Below, in pieces: positions 1,939 through 54,292 of a stretch of DNA of 64,000 bases. The notes beneath the pieces were generated by a model that made no database searches, was not told the DNA's origin, and was given only the letters and a program-made list of their open reading frames with translations. The DNA is from an uncultured bacterium (GTDB lineage Bacteria; Patescibacteriota; Minisyncoccia; Phycocordibacterales; UBA9973). Positions within the stretch are counted from its first letter, which is position 1, and each line of letters opens with the position of its first letter. The stretch is from contig CAITGV010000001.1 of assembly GCA_903892035.1 (NCBI GenBank), positions 18,578-82,577 of the forward strand, given 5' to 3'. The position numbers and the translations under genes are program-made.

Positions 1939-2144
1939 TGTCGGTATTATAGCAAAGAAAAGCTGGATTACAAAGAATATACCACCCCCTGCCCCCTCCT
2001 AATTTAAGTGGGGGTGAAGAAGGAGGTTCTTGGGTTGCATTTTTAGCATTTATATAGTATAGTCACTCCATTATTAGTCGGATTTTAGATTAACCCTGTT
2101 TGCCCTACTGAGTACGCCTCGGGACAAAAAGGCACTAAAACCTT

Positions 2145-4246: not shown

Positions 4247-4897
4247 GTGTCAAGGCGTATTTTAGACTATAATTGTCGCATGGAAAATCAAAATACAAAT
4301 AATATTGAAGTACAAAATTTAGAAATACTTCCACCAACTAAGCCGACTGCAAGAGAATCAGTCTGGGACCTAGCAAAATTTTTATTAATTGCTCTCGCTA
4401 TCGTTTTACCAATAAGATTTTTTGTCGCACAACCTTTTGTGGTGTCAGGACTTTCAATGTATCCGACATTCAATAATGGCAACTACCTCATCGTCGATGA
4501 AATTTCATATAAAATGCACAACCCAGCTCGAGGTGACGTAATCATTTTCCATTATCCAAAAGACCCAACAAAATATTTTATTAAAAGAGTCATAGGTCTT
4601 CCAGGAGAGACAGTCAAAATTGACGGTAGCACTGTGTCTATAAAAAACTCTGCTCATCCCGACGGTTTTGTACTCGACGAACCATATGTAAAAAACAAAT
4701 CCAGCAATCAATCTCAATACGTTCTTGGTCCCGATGAATATTTTATGATGGGAGACAATCGCTCAGCAAGTTCAGACTCTCGTATTTGGGGAAATTTACC
4801 AAAAAAATTAATCGTCGGTCGAGCATTTTTGCGACTATATCCATTATCAGATCTTAATGTTCTTCCGGGTGAATACAAACCTGAAGGCACAAATTAA
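4247..4897 (+). CDS. lepB: signal peptidase I
   Basis: SMYPTF..GDVIIF.....KRVIGLPGE...MGDNR..S.DSR; N-terminal TM segment. Confidence 0.85.
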   Translation: MSRRILDYNCRMENQNTNNIEVQNLEILPPTKPTARESVWDLAKFLLIALAIVLPIRFFVAQPFVVSGLSMYPTFNNGNYLIVDEISYKMHNPARGDVIIFHYPKDPTKYFIKRVIGLPGETVKIDGSTVSIKNSAHPDGFVLDEPYVKNKSSNQSQYVLGPDEYFMMGDNRSASSDSRIWGNLPKKLIVGRAFLRLYPLSDLNVLPGEYKPEGTN

Positions 4898-14715: not shown

Positions 14716-15894
14716 ATGCATATTGCACAGCGAATGTCGCGTTTGGGTACAGAGACAGCATTTGAAGTTTTAGCAAAAGCCAGAGCCCTAGAAGCACAAG
14801 GTAAAAGTATTGTCCATTTAGAAATTGGTGAACCAGATTTTGATACACCAAAAAATATTGTTGAGGCTGGAAAAAAAGCTCTCGATGATGGTTTTACACA
14901 CTATGGACCTTCTGCAGGCCTAGTACCTGCTCGCCAAGCAATTGCAGACTATGTAATGAAAACTCGTCCTGGTTTTTCGTGTAATGTGGACGAAGTAGTT
15001 ATCTGCCCTGGTGCAAAACCAATAATGTTTTATGTAATTATGGCTTCGGTTGACGAAGGTGATGAAGTTATTTATCCTTGTCCGGGCTTCCCTATTTATG
15101 AATCAATGATAAATTTTGTCGGTGGTAAACCAGTACCACTTCAACTCAAAGAAGAAAAAGGTTTTCGTTTCGATATTGAAGATCTAAAATCTCTCATCAC
15201 TCCAAAAACTCGCCTCCTCATAATGAATACTCCGCAAAATCCAACGGGAGGAATTTTAACAAAAGAAGATATCGAAGCAGTAGCAAAACTTGCAATTGAA
15301 AATGACATTATGGTTTTGTCTGATGAAATTTATTCTCAAATTACTTATGGAGATTTCAAACACTATTCATTTCTTCAAGTTCCAGGAATGAAAGAGCGCA
15401 CAATTCTCCTAGATGGTTTTTCAAAAGCTTATGCGATGACAGGTTGGAGACTTGGATACGGAGTAATGCCAGCAGATTTTGCAAAACTTGTTTCAAAACT
15501 TCAAACAAATTCTGCAAGTTGTACGGCAAGCTTTACACAAATGGCAGGTGTTGAAGCTCTCCAAGGTCCGCAAGAATCTGTCACAAAAATGGTAAAAGAA
15601 TTCCAAATTCGTCGTGATGCAATAGTCGATGGACTAAATTCAATTCCTGGTTTTCGATGCCACAAACCAGAAGGTGCATTTTATGTTTTCCCAAATATTG
15701 AAGGCACTGGTATGTCTTCACAAAAAATGGCCGACTTTCTACTAAACGAAGCTGGTGTCGCCTGCCTTTCTGGTACAGCCTTTGGCGCTCACGGTGAAGG
15801 CTTCATCCGCTTCTCTTATGCAAACTCTCTCGCAAATATAAACGAAGCAATTTCTCGAATTAAGGAAGCCGTCAAAAAACTGCCAACAAAATAA
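14716..15894 (+). CDS. PLP-dependent aminotransferase class I (aspartate aminotransferase-like)
   Basis: SKAYAMTGWRLGY lysine-region motif; 392 aa. Confidence 0.85.
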   Translation: MHIAQRMSRLGTETAFEVLAKARALEAQGKSIVHLEIGEPDFDTPKNIVEAGKKALDDGFTHYGPSAGLVPARQAIADYVMKTRPGFSCNVDEVVICPGAKPIMFYVIMASVDEGDEVIYPCPGFPIYESMINFVGGKPVPLQLKEEKGFRFDIEDLKSLITPKTRLLIMNTPQNPTGGILTKEDIEAVAKLAIENDIMVLSDEIYSQITYGDFKHYSFLQVPGMKERTILLDGFSKAYAMTGWRLGYGVMPADFAKLVSKLQTNSASCTASFTQMAGVEALQGPQESVTKMVKEFQIRRDAIVDGLNSIPGFRCHKPEGAFYVFPNIEGTGMSSQKMADFLLNEAGVACLSGTAFGAHGEGFIRFSYANSLANINEAISRIKEAVKKLPTK

Positions 15895-15899
15895 AAATA

Positions 15900-16003
15900 C
15901 AACCCCCCTAGCCCCCTTATCAGGGGGAGTATATACAAATACAAAAAAACTTGTCAGCAGTTCCTTCCTTGATAAGGGAAGGTGCCCAAAGGGCGGATGG
16001 GTT
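15900..16003 (+). repeat. structured intergenic repeat, copy A (hairpins CCCCCT-TATC-AGGGGG, CCTTCC-TTGATAAG-GGAAGG, GCCC-AAA-GGGC)
   Basis: Near-identical to segments at 45526-45600 and (inverted) 50534-50634; sits between convergent stop codons. Confidence 0.6.
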
Positions 16004-16026: not shown

Positions 16027-16473
16027 TTACTCACTCTTATTTGCAACCTTTGACTGATATGTGTCTGAAATAGCATTAAGTGCCGCTTGATTTTCTTTTA
16101 CAAAACGTTGCCAGATTAATTTATCCTTATCTGAAAAAACATTTTTAGGACGACGCATGTCAATCAATAAATTAATATTCGATCCACTTTTAGGATTTTT
16201 ATTTTCAAAATCGATAGCTTTGCGTGTTTCTTGATATGCTAGAAATATATTATAAATTAGTGAATCACCCAACTGATTGGCGTTTACTAAATATTTTGAC
16301 AATATATTTTTTATTGCTTCATTTCTTTCTGCTGCTGGAGATTTCATTTCTATATTTTCTGACGTGTTTTCAGTAGGCTGTGAGTTGTTTACTACAACAG
16401 AAAGATTACTCGAATTATTATCTGGAAAAGGAATCTCTGGCCCTAAATTTGGTACACGATTTAAGTTTCTCAT
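16027..16473 (-). CDS. hypothetical protein (148 aa)
   Basis: ORF track only; N/S/Q-rich N-terminus; no recognised domain. Confidence 0.35.
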   Translation of the reverse strand: MRNLNRVPNLGPEIPFPDNNSSNLSVVVNNSQPTENTSENIEMKSPAAERNEAIKNILSKYLVNANQLGDSLIYNIFLAYQETRKAIDFENKNPKSGSNINLLIDMRRPKNVFSDKDKLIWQRFVKENQAALNAISDTYQSKVANKSE

Positions 16474-30591: not shown

Positions 30592-30837
30592 AAGCTAAAA
30601 AAATTCCCCAGGTGGCAGCCCGAGGAATCTCAAAAATATGTTTCCGGAGAAATAGTCATACACCGCCTTAAAATGCTGACGTGACTCGGTCTTCCTAACT
30701 GTTTCGGAATGGAAGATTTAACAGAAATATATATGTCATATATATTGATAATATTCAAAATGAATATTATATTTAAAATCTACAAAGTAAGTAGCTTGGC
30801 TCCGCGGGTAGGGATCGAACCTACGACCAATCGATTA

Positions 30838-31406
30838 CACGAATCCTAATATTACTAAAAGGGGTGGACTATATCATATCCATGTTTTTACTTTCATAAA
30901 AATTTAGGACCAAGGCGCTTCCCGCTCTCTATAACTAGAGAGAAGTACTCCCCGAAGGGATAGTCTCTACACCTGCCCGCCGACCTAGGTCGGAGGGATT
31001 GGCTCGGGATTGTCCTTTTTACTGACTAAGGATTTCCCCGAATTCACCTTGTTTTTCATCCTTGCTTTCGCAAAGGAAGCTGCGTAATGCCCGCTTCGAC
31101 TTCTCTGTGACAGTTTGCACAAAGTAATACACATTTATCAAGTTCTGCTTTTACTCTCTCCCAACTTCGCGTGTATCCCTTCGCGCCAATCCCAAATTTT
31201 TTATTTAAAGGATTAACATGATGAAATTCAAGCGCATCTGTGCAACGAGAATAATGACAAATTTCGCAATTGCCACCGAGATAATTTAAAGACAATTCTT
31301 TAATCTTTTTTCGGCGTTTTACAACTGCTTTGATAAGTGTATCGCGACGCATAGCATAAGTTCGTTTCTCTGGCATAAGTTTATTATACCAAATGAAACT
31401 GGACCA
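30838..31406 (-). mobile_element. group I-like self-splicing intron in the tRNA-Asn anticodon loop (between positions 35 and 36), carrying an HNH endonuclease ORF
   Basis: Follows a U in the 5' exon and ends in G; R-like (AGAGACUA, ~30963-30975) and S-like (AUGAUAUAGUCC, ~30868-30880) elements can pair as P7; ORF lies in the 5' part. Confidence 0.65.
31056..31376 (-). CDS. HNH homing endonuclease (intron-encoded)
   Basis: CEICHYSRC...EFHHVNPLN...LLCANCHREVE, a complete HNH/zinc-finger motif set; 106 aa. Confidence 0.8.
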   Translation of the reverse strand: MPEKRTYAMRRDTLIKAVVKRRKKIKELSLNYLGGNCEICHYSRCTDALEFHHVNPLNKKFGIGAKGYTRSWERVKAELDKCVLLCANCHREVEAGITQLPLRKQG

Positions 31407-45023: not shown

Positions 45024-45525
45024 AATATTTAAAAAAAAATTATTTATAAAGATGTTACAACAGAGCGACCTTTTCAAAAAAAATTATTTAAAATATTTTT
45101 TAAAAAACAAAACTGTTGTAGCGATAATTTAATTATCGTACATAAAAATATTTCATGCAAGACTTTTTTTTCAAATATGTGGATAACTTTTTTTATTTTA
45201 GAAAATATTTTTTGAAAAAAATATTTTCTAAAATAAAAATACTTTTAAAAAAGTCCTCGGAAAAAATCCCCAGACATTTTTTAAAAGTATTTTTATTTTT
45301 TAATTTACTATTTTATTAGTAGTCTGAAAAATAATATTTTATTTTTTTAAAATGTATAAAACAAAAAATCTTTCACCAAAGTGAAAGATTTTTTGTTTGC
45401 ATTGTCGCCGTGTGAAGCCAACAAGTACGAAACTCCAACATAAGTGCCTATGTGAGTGCAGTTGCTGACTTCACACGAAGACAACAACTTCACTACTTAA
45501 GTGTACGATAGATGAATAATTAACA

Positions 45526-45600
45526 CAACCCCCTAAATCCCCCTTGTCAGGGGGACATTAAATACTTAGCAGTTTCCCTCCCTTGATAAGGGGAGGGTTA
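45526..45600 (+). repeat. structured intergenic repeat, copy B
   Basis: CAACCCCCTAAATCCCCCTTGTCAGGGGGA ... CCCTCCC-TTGATAAG-GGGAGGG; homologous to copy A with compensatory stem changes. Confidence 0.6.
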
Positions 45601-45624
45601 GGGTGGGGTTTTATATAAAACACA

Positions 45625-45646
45625 AAACCCCCTTGCGGGGGTTTTG
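45625..45646. terminator. hairpin terminator (AAACCCCC-TTGC-GGGGGTTTT)
   Basis: 5-bp GC stem plus T4, A-run upstream; downstream of the 589-aa minus-strand gene. Confidence 0.55.
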
Positions 45647-45795
45647 TGAGGCACTTATTTTTCTGAAAAAGAGATCAGAGCTCTTAACTCACCCTTATAG
45701 TATAGCAAATAGAATAGAAAAGTCAAGTATTTTTTTATATTTTATGCAAAAAAAGAACCCCCGAATCTCGGAGGCTCCTTTGCAATAACTAAACG

Positions 45796-47565
45796 CTATT
45801 GCACAAATATTTTTATGGCACTATGCTCCCCTTTGAGAACATAAATACCAGGTGGAAGATTGAGTTTATCTTTTTCAAGAATAACCTCTCCTTCCTGTGC
45901 GTGGCCTGACCAAACTTTTTGGCCGGTGGTGTTAAACAGAAAGAAATCACTTTCTTTCTTTGCATACAACGAGGAACCAATTTCTTGGATACCGGTTGTG
46001 TTAACAACAGTAACAGTTACATATTCATGAACTGTTGTGTTGCCATCAGTAGCAGTTAAAGTAAACATAGTGGTGGAATTTAAAATTCCAGTTGAATGCG
46101 TACCGCTTAAATTTACCTGACCAATACCATGATCAATGGTGACAGTTACATTACTCATGTTCGCAACTGACCAATGAAGCAAACTTGATCCACCAATTGC
46201 TATAACGCTAGGTAAAGCAGTAAATGAATTGATAGTAACAACAGGCGTTTGAAAAACAAAAGTTACAGTTGCACTATATCCATTTTCACTGTTGCTATTG
46301 AAAGCAAAAACTCTTGCAAGATAAGTCACCCCATCTTGAAAAGGATTGTTTGTCGGCAACTGAATACTCATACCATCATTAGTAATCCCCGCTTGAAAGG
46401 CTGCCATTGGAGAAGTAAAAATGGTATGCGCAAAACCATAATCAAATTGAGAAGTTATCTCAAGTTGAAGTGAACCTGCGAATTGTGAGCTAACATTTAC
46501 ATCAAAGTTTTGATTCGTACTACTAAAAGTGTAGGTGGAATCAATTAATGATGTAAGAGTTACAGGAGCTTGCGGTGTAACAAAAGCATGATTGTTACTA
46601 CAAACTTCAGTAAAATTTCCCCATACACAAGCATGCACACTGTAGTGACTGTTCCCTAATAGATTATAAAATCTAGAAGTAACTTGAACACTTGTGAATT
46701 GTGCACTAAATGGTTGCGATACTGAATCAATAACAGTATTACTGCTATCACTTAAATATTCAGTAAAGTGACCACTTGTTCCATTTGGGAAAATTGTACG
46801 AACAACTTTAACAGAGTCCCAGTAAACTGGGCATGCATCAAGGTTGCTTGTAATCTGAGGTGTTGTCGCAACTTGTGATGTCACCATGTCTGATGCTGTT
46901 GTGTCTGATCCAACTACATTATCAATTATAATTACATAACTGATGTTATAATTGTTATTTGGAAAACCTGTCAATGTATAAGTCGTTTGACTCGAATCGA
47001 TAGGAGTTACAAACTGGTCCCACACATAAGCATCTACCCATGAGAATACTGCATATCCTGGGCAAACCCAGACTGTAATTGTTGAAGTCGTATAACCAGT
47101 AAATCGGTTGTACGGAATCAATCCACCACCATCAAGATTTGTAGGTGCACCAGATAATGAAATCTGGGATGATACAAAAATTGGACTCACATAAACACTC
47201 AGTGCTCCTGTGGAATCCAATATTACCACATGAGCTGTGTCAATGAATCTTGCACGATATTTTTCATAATATGTGCCAGATACTGCAAAATGGATACTGT
47301 CATTCGTTACTACAAAAGTATCATTTACAGCTGAAGTGTTTACGAACGTATCAACGTTCGTGTGAAAGTTTTGCATAATTGAGGTGTATCCCCAATCAAG
47401 CGAAACGATAGCGCTGTCCCCTGGAGGAACAATTACTTTTTTTTGCGCACGAGAGAACAGTTGTCCTCCATAGATTGGCGCATTAAAATTTACTGACTGC
47501 GCTTCGGAAATTGCCACCATGGCAAACATCAAAGCGATTGCTACTAATAAAGTTACTTTTTTCAT
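45796..47565 (-). CDS. exported beta-rich protein (589 aa), hypothetical surface protein
   Basis: Signal peptide MKKVTLLVAIALMFAMVAISEAQS; T/S/V-rich, Ig-like composition. Confidence 0.55.
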   Translation of the reverse strand: MKKVTLLVAIALMFAMVAISEAQSVNFNAPIYGGQLFSRAQKKVIVPPGDSAIVSLDWGYTSIMQNFHTNVDTFVNTSAVNDTFVVTNDSIHFAVSGTYYEKYRARFIDTAHVVILDSTGALSVYVSPIFVSSQISLSGAPTNLDGGGLIPYNRFTGYTTSTITVWVCPGYAVFSWVDAYVWDQFVTPIDSSQTTYTLTGFPNNNYNISYVIIIDNVVGSDTTASDMVTSQVATTPQITSNLDACPVYWDSVKVVRTIFPNGTSGHFTEYLSDSSNTVIDSVSQPFSAQFTSVQVTSRFYNLLGNSHYSVHACVWGNFTEVCSNNHAFVTPQAPVTLTSLIDSTYTFSSTNQNFDVNVSSQFAGSLQLEITSQFDYGFAHTIFTSPMAAFQAGITNDGMSIQLPTNNPFQDGVTYLARVFAFNSNSENGYSATVTFVFQTPVVTINSFTALPSVIAIGGSSLLHWSVANMSNVTVTIDHGIGQVNLSGTHSTGILNSTTMFTLTATDGNTTVHEYVTVTVVNTTGIQEIGSSLYAKKESDFFLFNTTGQKVWSGHAQEGEVILEKDKLNLPPGIYVLKGEHSAIKIFVQ

Positions 47566-47845: not shown

Positions 47846-48198
47846 CAATGCTTTGTGCCTATAAGCCGAATTCTGTTATCGATAGTCATTTATCTAGCCC
47901 CTCGATTACTCTCGGGGTCAAGCGGCACTTCCTTCGACTTCGCTCGGGACTAGTCCTGAACTTGTTGAAGGACACGGCCTTGCATTCACGTAAGGATTTA
48001 GCCGTTTCATTCTGATATTTCTATCAGCCTATCCCTTACGGGACCCTAGCCTTTCGGCATCGGCGTTTCTGCTCGCACCTCTATGATTGCTCACGACGGG
48101 CGTTACCCGCTACGCTTTCCCTCGATTACTCTCGGGATAAATGTTCGGACTTTCCTCCCTACAGCCAAAGCCATAGAGTAACTATCCAGCACAAAGCA
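47846..48198 (-). ncRNA. rnpB: RNase P RNA (bacterial type A-like)
   Basis: Minus-strand GGGAGGAAAGUCCGAACA (P4 5' strand) and ACAGAAUUCGGCUUAUAG (P4 3' strand); P1 GCUUUGUGC/GCACAAAGC closes the molecule; -10 TATAAT lies 7 nt upstream; terminator-like hairpin at 47805-47835. Confidence 0.85.
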
Positions 48199-50533: not shown

Positions 50534-50634
50534 AATACAACCCATCCGTCCTTCGGACACCTTCCCTTATCAAGGAAGGAATAAATTCAAAATACAAAAA
50601 CTCCCCATTTGGGGAGTTTTTGTATTTTGAAAAA
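50534..50634 (-). repeat. structured intergenic repeat, copy C (inverted relative to A and B), includes a 19-bp perfect palindromic terminator
   Basis: Reverse complement matches copy A over the TTCCTTCCTTGATAAGGGAAGGTG(C/T)CC(A/G)AAGG(G/A)CGGATGGG block; CAAAATACAAAAACTCCCC/GGGGAGTTTTTGTATTTTG. Confidence 0.6.
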
Positions 50635-52504: not shown

Positions 52505-54120
<1,616 letters not shown>

Positions 54121-54292
54121 AAATTGTTATAAATAACAATAGTTTGTGAGAACGGAACAAAATAAAAAGTATAATTTTTATGTGCTCACATTTTTAGGAA
54201 ATAGCTCTTAATTATATAGAAACTTGCATCTAATTATGTCTTGTATTCACTATTCCGTTGTAAAAGAAAGCGCCTAAAAAAGACGCTTAACT

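Follow-up and report, generated by a model that had tools for sequence, protein, structure and literature searches.

Inverted repeats of BoxC/PIT type in a patescibacterial genome and the association of such repeats with DUF559 nuclease genes

In the 64-kb window (the whole stretch of 64,000 nucleotides analysed here, from an uncultured bacterium of the Patescibacteriota), a generic scan for a hairpin followed by a mirrored tail counts exactly six units, all of one repeat family, where Markov simulations give 0.07. These repeats are best read as a new, widely distributed variant of the BoxC/PIT class of DNA repeats rather than as structured RNA, and the association of such repeats with genes for DUF559 proteins suggests a partnership like that between REP sequences and RAYT transposases. 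On balance, we lean towards regarding the window repeats as non-autonomous, REP-like DNA repeats of the BoxC, PIT or TM type, which would be maintained in trans by a DUF559 nuclease. A wider proposal, to which we give a little less than even credence, is that, throughout Bacteria, triplex repeats of BoxC/PIT type have their cognate enzymes in DUF559 proteins (YcjD type, with a Vsr fold), and that the triplex, not the plain hairpin, is what these proteins recognise.

BoxC, PIT and TM repeats have been catalogued since the 1990s. The subfamily with a TGAYAA loop described here is common to Patescibacteria, sulfur and iron oxidisers, Geobacter and others, and its diversity yields clean covariation evidence for the interaction of a third strand, a kind of evidence that a single-species family like TM_ECO is unable to provide. 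The link with DUF559 is new, reaches as far as E. coli ycjD, and is the part that could matter beyond the window.

Layout of the repeats in the window

The original prediction had described structured intergenic repeats of about 100 nt with compensatory stem changes, and the observation is that of a real repeat family with genuine covariation. The core CCTYCC-TTGATAAG-GGRAGG recurs at 15961-15982 (plus strand), 45575-45596 (plus) and 50560-50581 (minus), with 0 matches expected in 100 shuffles, and the likeness reported between copies A and C also holds, the arms 15961-16003 and 50539-50581 being 93% complementary over 43 nt. Flank alignment of the at least 117 loci retrieved from other genomes resolved the ~100-nt element into an inverted doublet of a smaller unit. 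This basic unit measures 30-45 nt and reads, on the G-rich strand, as a pyrimidine arm, a TGAYAA loop, the complementary purine arm, a linker (2-5 nt or a small GC mini-hairpin), a G-rich tail mirroring the unit's own purine arm, and TT; arms are 5-8 nt long, and the units end in AACC.../...GGTT in all copies. In doublets both tails point outward (AACCCC...GGGGTT). Single units are common, and tail-to-tail pairs number 7 against 83 left-right (L-R) doublets among the loci listed. In the window, copies A and B are inverted doublets of ~85-100 nt, each made of two different units, and copy C is a single unit adjoining an ordinary terminator; the sequence of one window unit is CCCTCCCTTGATAAGGGGAGGGTTAGGGTGGGGTT. 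The features are the following:

1985-2014, minus strand: fourth copy, a degenerate single unit (plus strand CCCCC-tg-CCCCC-13-nt loop-GGGGG)
15901-15927, minus strand: left unit of copy A, read from the sequence and from the unit scan (plus strand: tail AACCCCCC, linker tag, arm CCCCC, loop TTATCA, arm GGGGG; minus strand: CCCCC-TGATAA-GGGGG-cta-GGGGGG-TT)
15928-15962, no strand: spacer between the units of copy A, read from the sequence
15963-16003, plus strand: right unit of copy A (CCTTCCT-TGATAA-GGGAAGG, linker mini-hairpin, tail GGATGGG, then TT)
15983-15994: linker mini-hairpin of copy A, T-GCCC-AAA-GGGC
45527-45554, minus strand: left unit of copy B (plus strand AACCCCC-taaat-CCCCC-TTGTCA-GGGGG)
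45555-45575, no strand: spacer of copy B, read from the sequence
45576-45610, plus strand: right unit of copy B (CCCTCCCT-TGATAA-GGGGAGGG-TTA-GGGTGGGG-TT)
45621-45648, minus strand: ordinary intrinsic terminator of the minus-strand gene at 45796-47565, beside copy B and outside the repeat
50539-50579, minus strand: copy C, one right-type unit (CCTTCCT-TGATAA-GGGAAGG, linker mini-hairpin, tail GGATGGG, then TT)
50548-50559: linker mini-hairpin of copy C, T-GTCC-GAA-GGAC
50587-50632, no strand: 21-bp bidirectional terminator-like hairpin between convergent genes, unrelated to the repeat

The six units found by the scanner are the five expected ones plus the copy at 1985-2014, which had been suspected as a degenerate fourth and is real at the unit level (0.07 units being expected per 64 kb); its tail still mirrors its arm, and its TGAYAA loop is gone. 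Other details of the early description had to be redrawn. Three hairpins had been assigned to every copy; hairpin 1 (CCCCCTTRTCAGGGGG) is confined to A and B, that of copy C being the unrelated 21-bp terminator-like hairpin, and the third hairpin is the optional mini-hairpin standing in place of the linker, absent from copy B, where a 3-nt linker TTA leads to the tail GGGTGGGG. Near-identical mini-hairpins are found in otherwise unrelated units (loci L126, L139, L155, L156, L174, L184, L189 and L191). Both compensatory changes noticed in the window are real, that of the middle stem between A/C and B (T-A to C-G) as well as that of the third hairpin (GCCC/GGGC in A, GTCC/GGAC in C). Copy B runs to 45610, not to 45600. 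The location between convergent stop codons, claimed for each copy, is right for A (flanking stops at 15894 and 16027) and for C (50533 and 50635) and wrong for B, which is found in a gap of 930 nt with a minus-strand gene on either side, upstream of secA and immediately downstream from where the 45796-47565 gene has its terminator.

A terminator had been among the three candidates put forward, and it is rejected, as the units end in TT only, with no T-run, and separate terminators stand beside copies B (45621-45648) and C (~50587-50632). Chance similarity or ordinary terminators, for which just the look of a GC-rich hairpin speaks, would have to face a motif with 0 matches expected, six units against 0.07, at least 117 loci elsewhere and the missing T-run, and we give that explanation practically no credence.

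The spacers share with a Nomurabacteria copy (L097) the sequence CTT(GTC)AGCA(G)TT, at 15950-15962 in A and at 45565-45575 in B, so that in that lineage the doublet appears to propagate whole and not by unit. The ORF adjoining copy A (16027-16473, minus strand) has no Pfam match and is not a DUF559 gene. Upstream of secA, at 45185-45314, dense nested AT-rich palindromes occur, with arms of 29-38 nt which are 84-93% complementary.

The mirrored tail and the predicted triplex

Covariation within the hairpin is statistically real: in 104 distinct TGAYAA hairpins with an 8-bp stem, 129 cells are changed on both sides, against 54 in shuffles (0/500 reach the observed value), and slid controls gave at most 38 double-sided changes. 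It had been taken as a sign of selection on RNA structure, a conclusion which is not supported in that form, since the same covariation is equally expected for DNA hairpins. Read on the strand with the G-rich tail, the loop-closing pair is C-G in 64 and T.G in 36 of the 104 hairpins; the latter would be a C.A mismatch on the opposite strand, which points to the G-tail strand as the folding strand.

The strongest covariation joins the purine arm to the downstream G-rich tail, and it follows a mirror and not a Watson-Crick rule:

Purine arm G4, G5 or G6: tail G4TT, G5TT or G6TT, respectively
Purine arm GGGG-A-GG: tail GG-A/T-GGGG-TT
Purine arm GGG-AA-GG: tail GG-AT-GGG-TT

The loop-proximal G-run equals the G-run before TT in 100/127 distinct units (permutation mean 34, maximum 52). 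In the mirror register, stem G faces tail G in 594/625 cases and stem A obeys the rule in 114/124, the tail base facing stem A being A in 86, T in 28, G in 10 and C in 0 (n=124), against only 25/124 matching A positions in a direct-register control. Across the loci retrieved with DUF559 proteins, which are considered below, the tail always mirrors its own arm, and many more examples of the rule are thereby provided. Within the window, the right unit of copy A fits in 7/7 triads (G/G, A/A, A/T) and that of copy B in 8/8, with a tail T facing a stem A, while the five-G arm of the left unit of copy B has its counterpart in a five-G tail. Moreover, of the 58 doublets whose stems are unlike, 46 have each tail matched to its own stem, and in only 5 are the two tails equal; the tails track their own stems, and the mirror relation is therefore internal to the unit and not that of a closing stem.

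Judged from the sequences, the mirror rule (G·G-C, A·A-T and T·A-T, with an antiparallel third segment) fits a class II purine-motif intrastrand triplex. All six window units have the order of parts of a triplex repeat (arm, loop, arm, short loop, and a third arm of G, A and T), and the units are multi-copy, mainly intergenic and far above chance. According to the mechanism which we propose, the strand with the G-rich tail, once single-stranded (for instance in an intermediate of replication or repair), would fold into the hairpin, and the tail would then bind the purine arm as an antiparallel third strand through the same triads.

Three other explanations of the tail were tried and rejected. 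A closing stem between the outer tails as the main constraint disagrees with the 46/58 doublets whose tails match their own stems, and with the existence of single units and tail-to-tail pairs; an orthologous pair (L022 and L102) does display a compensatory change of the outer tails, from AACCCC/GGGGTT to AACCCT/AGGGTT, so that such a stem may also matter secondarily. That the tail could pair with the pyrimidine arm in Watson-Crick fashion, as an alternative to the purine arm, is contradicted by the T which faces A-T in 28/124 cases and by a register which is mirrored, not complementary. As for a G-quadruplex, units with G5 or G6 arms contain only two G-runs.

Two kinds of composite structure were observed in individual loci. 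In L003, L046, L093 and L113, which are Geobacter-type copies and one alphaproteobacterial copy, the TTATCA loop of the left hairpin is interrupted by a palindromic insert of ~17 nt (TATGCCCCAGAGGGTAC and variants), which looks like a nested, smaller second repeat. In Desulfobacterales/Geobacter loci (L013, L014, L080 and L084, and also L046, L048, L076 and L089), the doublet lies within a longer conserved palindromic repeat with flanks ...agtaccctgtaacatttaagtcc / ggatgcgaaagaatatgtgttccatggtactag..., which suggests a composite element.

Distribution and the question of an RNA element

A search with an exact 20-mer of the repeat, using one genome per species, returned at least 117 loci, and the family is thus found in other genomes, beyond the window. 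Among the matches listed, the 20-mer occurs within Patescibacteria in Saccharibacteria, Nomura-, Gracili- and Peribacteria, and also in Thiothrix/Thiolinea, Geobacter, Gallionella, Desulfobacterales, Nitrospirota, Chloroflexota, a cyanobacterium and Vibrio maritimus, often in several copies per genome. Thiolinea disciformis DSM 14473 and Thiothrix eikelboomii ATCC 49788 are two isolates with copies of this subfamily. The repeats are the only sequence in which the window matches the fetched loci. Phages as vectors were considered and rejected, the 20-mer being present in just 2 of 2.9 million viral contigs (IMG/VR L118 and L119). No target-site duplication was seen in the flanks of ~100 copies, and no empty or filled orthologous site was found; in two orthologous pairs (L016/L088 and L022/L102) the element has been kept in place, which fits a slow and mostly vertical inheritance.

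An RNA element, that is, a 3'-UTR hairpin module protecting mRNA ends or binding a protein, as for some REP sequences, would agree with several of these facts. Copies A and C lie between convergent genes, in likely 3' UTRs, and copy B beside a terminator; the hairpins are stable as RNA; neither the stem covariation nor the T.G (G.U) pair is at odds with RNA; and convergent contexts are more numerous than divergent ones (16 versus 8). Nevertheless, when orientation was set by the asymmetric right unit (an L-R doublet being its own reverse complement at the label level) and compared with both flanking genes, orientable elements were sense in 22, antisense in 29, convergent in 16 and divergent in 8 cases, as obtained with crude ORF calls, and this lack of orientation bias does not favour the RNA reading. 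In addition, some units lie inside ORFs (~20/127 pattern units fall within long ones, again with crude ORF calling) and in divergent regions, the fourth copy among them. The mirror rule with T opposite A-T fits the purine motif, and purine-motif triplexes are reported not to form in RNA (PMC4666352), the same work having found no terminator or promoter activity for PIT. No Rfam family was found at the repeats by a gathering-score scan of the window or by an E-value scan of copy A, whose best sub-threshold matches are chance miRNA models of at most 19.5 bits. We therefore regard the RNA element as improbable. The absence of strand bias, the tolerance of T opposite A-T and the units within ORFs favour an element acting at the DNA level; RNA hairpins would form too, and may have a side effect on transcripts.

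In one of the loci (L062, 2578-3363, plus strand) a single unit lies in frame in a short-chain dehydrogenase gene, where it encodes ...SSLDKGRAGGV...

Comparison with known repeat families

The early verdict that the repeats match nothing that can be named is correct as regards Rfam and incorrect as regards their architecture, which is that of a published class. BoxC, PIT (potential intrastrand triplex) and TM_ECO are names for the same repeats of E. coli and other Proteobacteria (Holder et al. 2015, PMC4666352; earlier descriptions by Bachellier et al. 1999 and by Maher and co-workers 2000, as cited there). According to the same source (PMC4666352), TM_ECO corresponds to a class II purine-motif intrastrand triplex, is counted 23 times in MG1655 and 3610 times across 262 proteobacterial genomes, and occurs as inverted pairs of a type A and a type B; its single strand forms a stable triplex in vitro (CD, NMR and melting), its duplex form does not, and DMS footprinting detected no triplex in vivo. 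No promoter or terminator activity, no function, and no mobility gene or transposase nearby were found for it (PMC4666352).

The window repeats share with this class the C-rich arm, loop, G-rich arm, 3-nt loop and mirrored second G-rich arm, the A or T opposite A-T, a G/C-rich, multi-copy and intergenic character with no T-run, and the inverted pairing of two unit types, A and B in TM_ECO and the 58 distinct doublets with unlike stems here. In sequence, however, they are unrelated: the window units fail the TM_ECO consensus CCCTCNCCC N3-6 GGGNGAGGG N3 GGGNGAGGG, and their arms (CCTTCCT/GGGAAGG, CCCTCCCT/GGGGAGGG and CCCCC/GGGGG) measure 5-8 nt instead of 9. The TGAYAA first loop, the AACC.../...GGTT ends and the optional linker mini-hairpin (of the T-GCCC-GAAG-GGC type) also set the window subfamily apart from TM_ECO, as do its hosts, which include Patescibacteria and many non-proteobacterial phyla.

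A mobile element of REP or MITE type was the closest to the evidence of the three candidates first offered. Like REP and REPIN sequences with their RAYT transposases (a concept outlined in PMC3116915 and PMC3337134), the repeats are short palindromic units in inverted doublets with a spacer, mostly intergenic and with many copies per genome, and a doublet of two unlike inverted units would be comparable to a REPIN. RAYT transposases are thought to copy or maintain REP and REPIN sequences in trans. The resemblance to that pair, in which here a small nuclease gene is bracketed by units and repeat number in E. coli drops where the gene is absent, is one in working, not of family membership. In fact, the units lack the GTAG or CGTC tag at the end of the palindrome and carry a third-strand tail unlike REP, and the partner has the Vsr/PD-(D/E)XK fold of DUF559 in place of the Y1 HUH tyrosine transposase that is RAYT; no recurrent Y1 (HUH) RAYT neighbour appeared in the ORF clusters of the 117 loci listed, as judged by clustering and with no Y1_Tnp HMM. 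Furthermore, the unit sequence is common across phyla, whereas REPIN/RAYT systems are described as lineage-specific and vertically inherited.

With regard to the second part of that candidate, the repeats have a size of ~100 nt, TIR-like ends (AACCCC...GGGGTT), folding into long hairpins and one in-frame case (L062). MITEs, such as Correia and RPE elements, are likewise ~100 nt long, with terminal inverted similarity and long hairpins, and are occasionally found in frame in genes. Two other MITE traits were not seen, namely a target-site duplication (~100 copies) and, among the neighbours, a related IS with a DDE transposase. Integron attC sites, with their R''/R' core sites (RYYYAAC / GTTRRRY) in cassette arrays, were rejected, since AAC and GTT are present with misfitting adjoining bases (for example atacAAC / GTTtaat) and the copies are solitary.

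Association with DUF559 nuclease genes

All ORFs of the at least 117 loci listed were clustered to find recurrent neighbours, and one small specific family recurs beside the repeats, DUF559 (PF04480, E 1e-28 to 1e-34). Its gene is bracketed by units in 11 of the 117 loci listed, which belong to Patescibacteria, Desulfuromonadota, Nitrospirota and an alphaproteobacterium. The remaining large clusters consist of ubiquitous protein families, read from their sequences as response regulators, ABC transporters and SDRs. A second set consisted of 80 metagenome loci chosen by DUF559 protein similarity alone and seeded from unit-adjacent genes, so that it represents one clade of PF04480 and not the whole family; within it, a triplex unit lies at most 250 nt from the DUF559 gene in 73/80 loci. 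These loci hold 263 units against 4.0 in composition-matched simulations, distributed as 208 in the 43.5 kb near the genes and 55 in the 196 kb farther off. Arms and loops vary widely among them (for example AAGGGGGG/GGGGGGAT, GGAGAGGGG/GGGGTGAGG and GGGGAAAGGG/GGGATAGGGG), and the similarity of the flanking units rises with protein identity, from a 5-mer Jaccard index of 0.19 below 40% identity to 0.69 above 75% (0/2000 permutations).

The partner protein keeps a D...E-x-D-G...H motif, and its closest solved structure is PDB 3HRL, an uncharacterised DUF559 protein from Neisseria (E 1e-14). In the searchable literature, no paper links DUF559 or ycjD with BoxC or other repeats, and no substrate is described for any DUF559 protein. 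Vsr nicks at T:G mismatches (PMC3424549), which may be set beside the T.G loop-closing pair of 36/104 distinct hairpins as a lead only.

In the mechanism favoured here, the folded unit would be the recognition element of a small DUF559 nuclease (Vsr/PD-(D/E)XK fold, YcjD type), which would copy or maintain the repeats in trans, copies persisting chiefly in gene-poor spots such as 3' ends. The 64-kb window contains no DUF559 gene by tblastn and HMM search, and the nuclease would be encoded elsewhere in the genome, itself flanked by units.

The same association could have arisen the other way round, with DUF559 genes as parasites of the repeats, inserting at tail-to-tail junctions in the manner of homing endonucleases, and with the repeats spreading or persisting through slippage, recombination or host benefit. 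The genes do lie between units and not inside doublets, the nearest upstream unit being of R-type in 41/65 loci and the nearest downstream one of L-type in 35/59, in both cases with the tail toward the gene; gene-less tail-to-tail R-L pairs exist (L028, L094, L100, L108 and L116); and the Vsr/DUF559 clade is reported to include a group I intron homing endonuclease (PMC3424549). That the sequence of the flanking units tracks that of the protein is easier to understand with a nuclease that acts on the repeats, an argument which is not decisive, and we consider the parasitic origin unlikely while giving it some weight.

A DNA structure acting at host level with no dedicated enzyme has also to be weighed. 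TM_ECO was proposed to mark pause sites with local variability (Holder et al., PMC4666352), and along this line the repeats would be pause sites of replication or recombination which raise local variability, adjacency to DUF559 being a by-product of unstable intergenic islands. In support of it, a comparison of 56 E. coli genomes showed greater variability at TM_ECO loci than in control intergenic regions, with no transposase nearby (PMC4666352). Nevertheless, it leaves unexplained the 73/80 DUF559 genes with matching flanking units, ~300 times the simulated rate, and the fact that unit type follows protein type, and we judge it quite improbable.

Should the link between nuclease and repeats prove functional, an enzyme would be named for these repeats and a role assigned to DUF559, and there would be a naturally occurring example of a DNA triplex recognised by a protein. 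It would also be a second repeat-nuclease partnership of the REP/RAYT kind, built on a PD-(D/E)XK nuclease.

E. coli ycjD and TM_ECO

In E. coli MG1655, number 9 of Holder's list of TM_ECO copies lies 167 nt downstream of ycjD, the DUF559 gene. Between the two (ycjD-fabI region, L200, ~4290-4420) there is a second, truncated 3' end of ycjD (ggagacggtgctggagaatattc...), and such a duplicated fragment beside the gene is a further point for the parasitic origin of DUF559 genes. A degenerate CCCTC...GAGGG hairpin was also observed over the ycjD stop codon of MG1655.

The gene is present in phylogroups A, B1 and C, eefRABCD being found in its place elsewhere (PMC12817139). TM_ECO counts, as tabulated in PMC4666352, are 19-30 in MG1655, BL21, HS, 55989, IAI1 and W, 6-15 in O157, UMN026, 042 and IAI39, and 1-2 in CFT073, UTI89, IHE3034, S88 and APEC O1. 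Among 5426 complete genomes, 3377 have the full ycjD region, and the rest match only its 46-nt TM_ECO part. We take the strains with 19-30 copies to belong to the phylogroups with ycjD (A/B1/C), and those with 1-2 copies to B2, in which eefRABCD replaces the gene. Far fewer copies in strains presumably of lineages with no ycjD speak against DUF559 genes as mere parasites, and again not decisively. The contrast is the pattern to be expected of repeats whose numbers depend on a nuclease, with one or two evolutionary events behind it.

Other features of the window

Some observations concern structured RNAs elsewhere in the window. The minus-strand region 30797-31376 contains an Rfam group I intron match at 30845-31096, followed by an apparent 3' half of a tRNA (GGTTCGATCCC...GCGGAGCCA, ~30840-30797); before the match comes a 106-aa ORF (31056-31376) that bears HNH-like CxxC...HH...CxxCH motifs. 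The region is probably an intron-split tRNA gene with a homing-endonuclease ORF. ARAGORN reported no tRNA in the whole 64 kb. The 16S rRNA gene (52515-54121, minus strand) stands alone among protein-coding genes; the window has no 23S rRNA, and the RNase P RNA (47846-48197, minus strand) lies 4 kb from the 16S gene.
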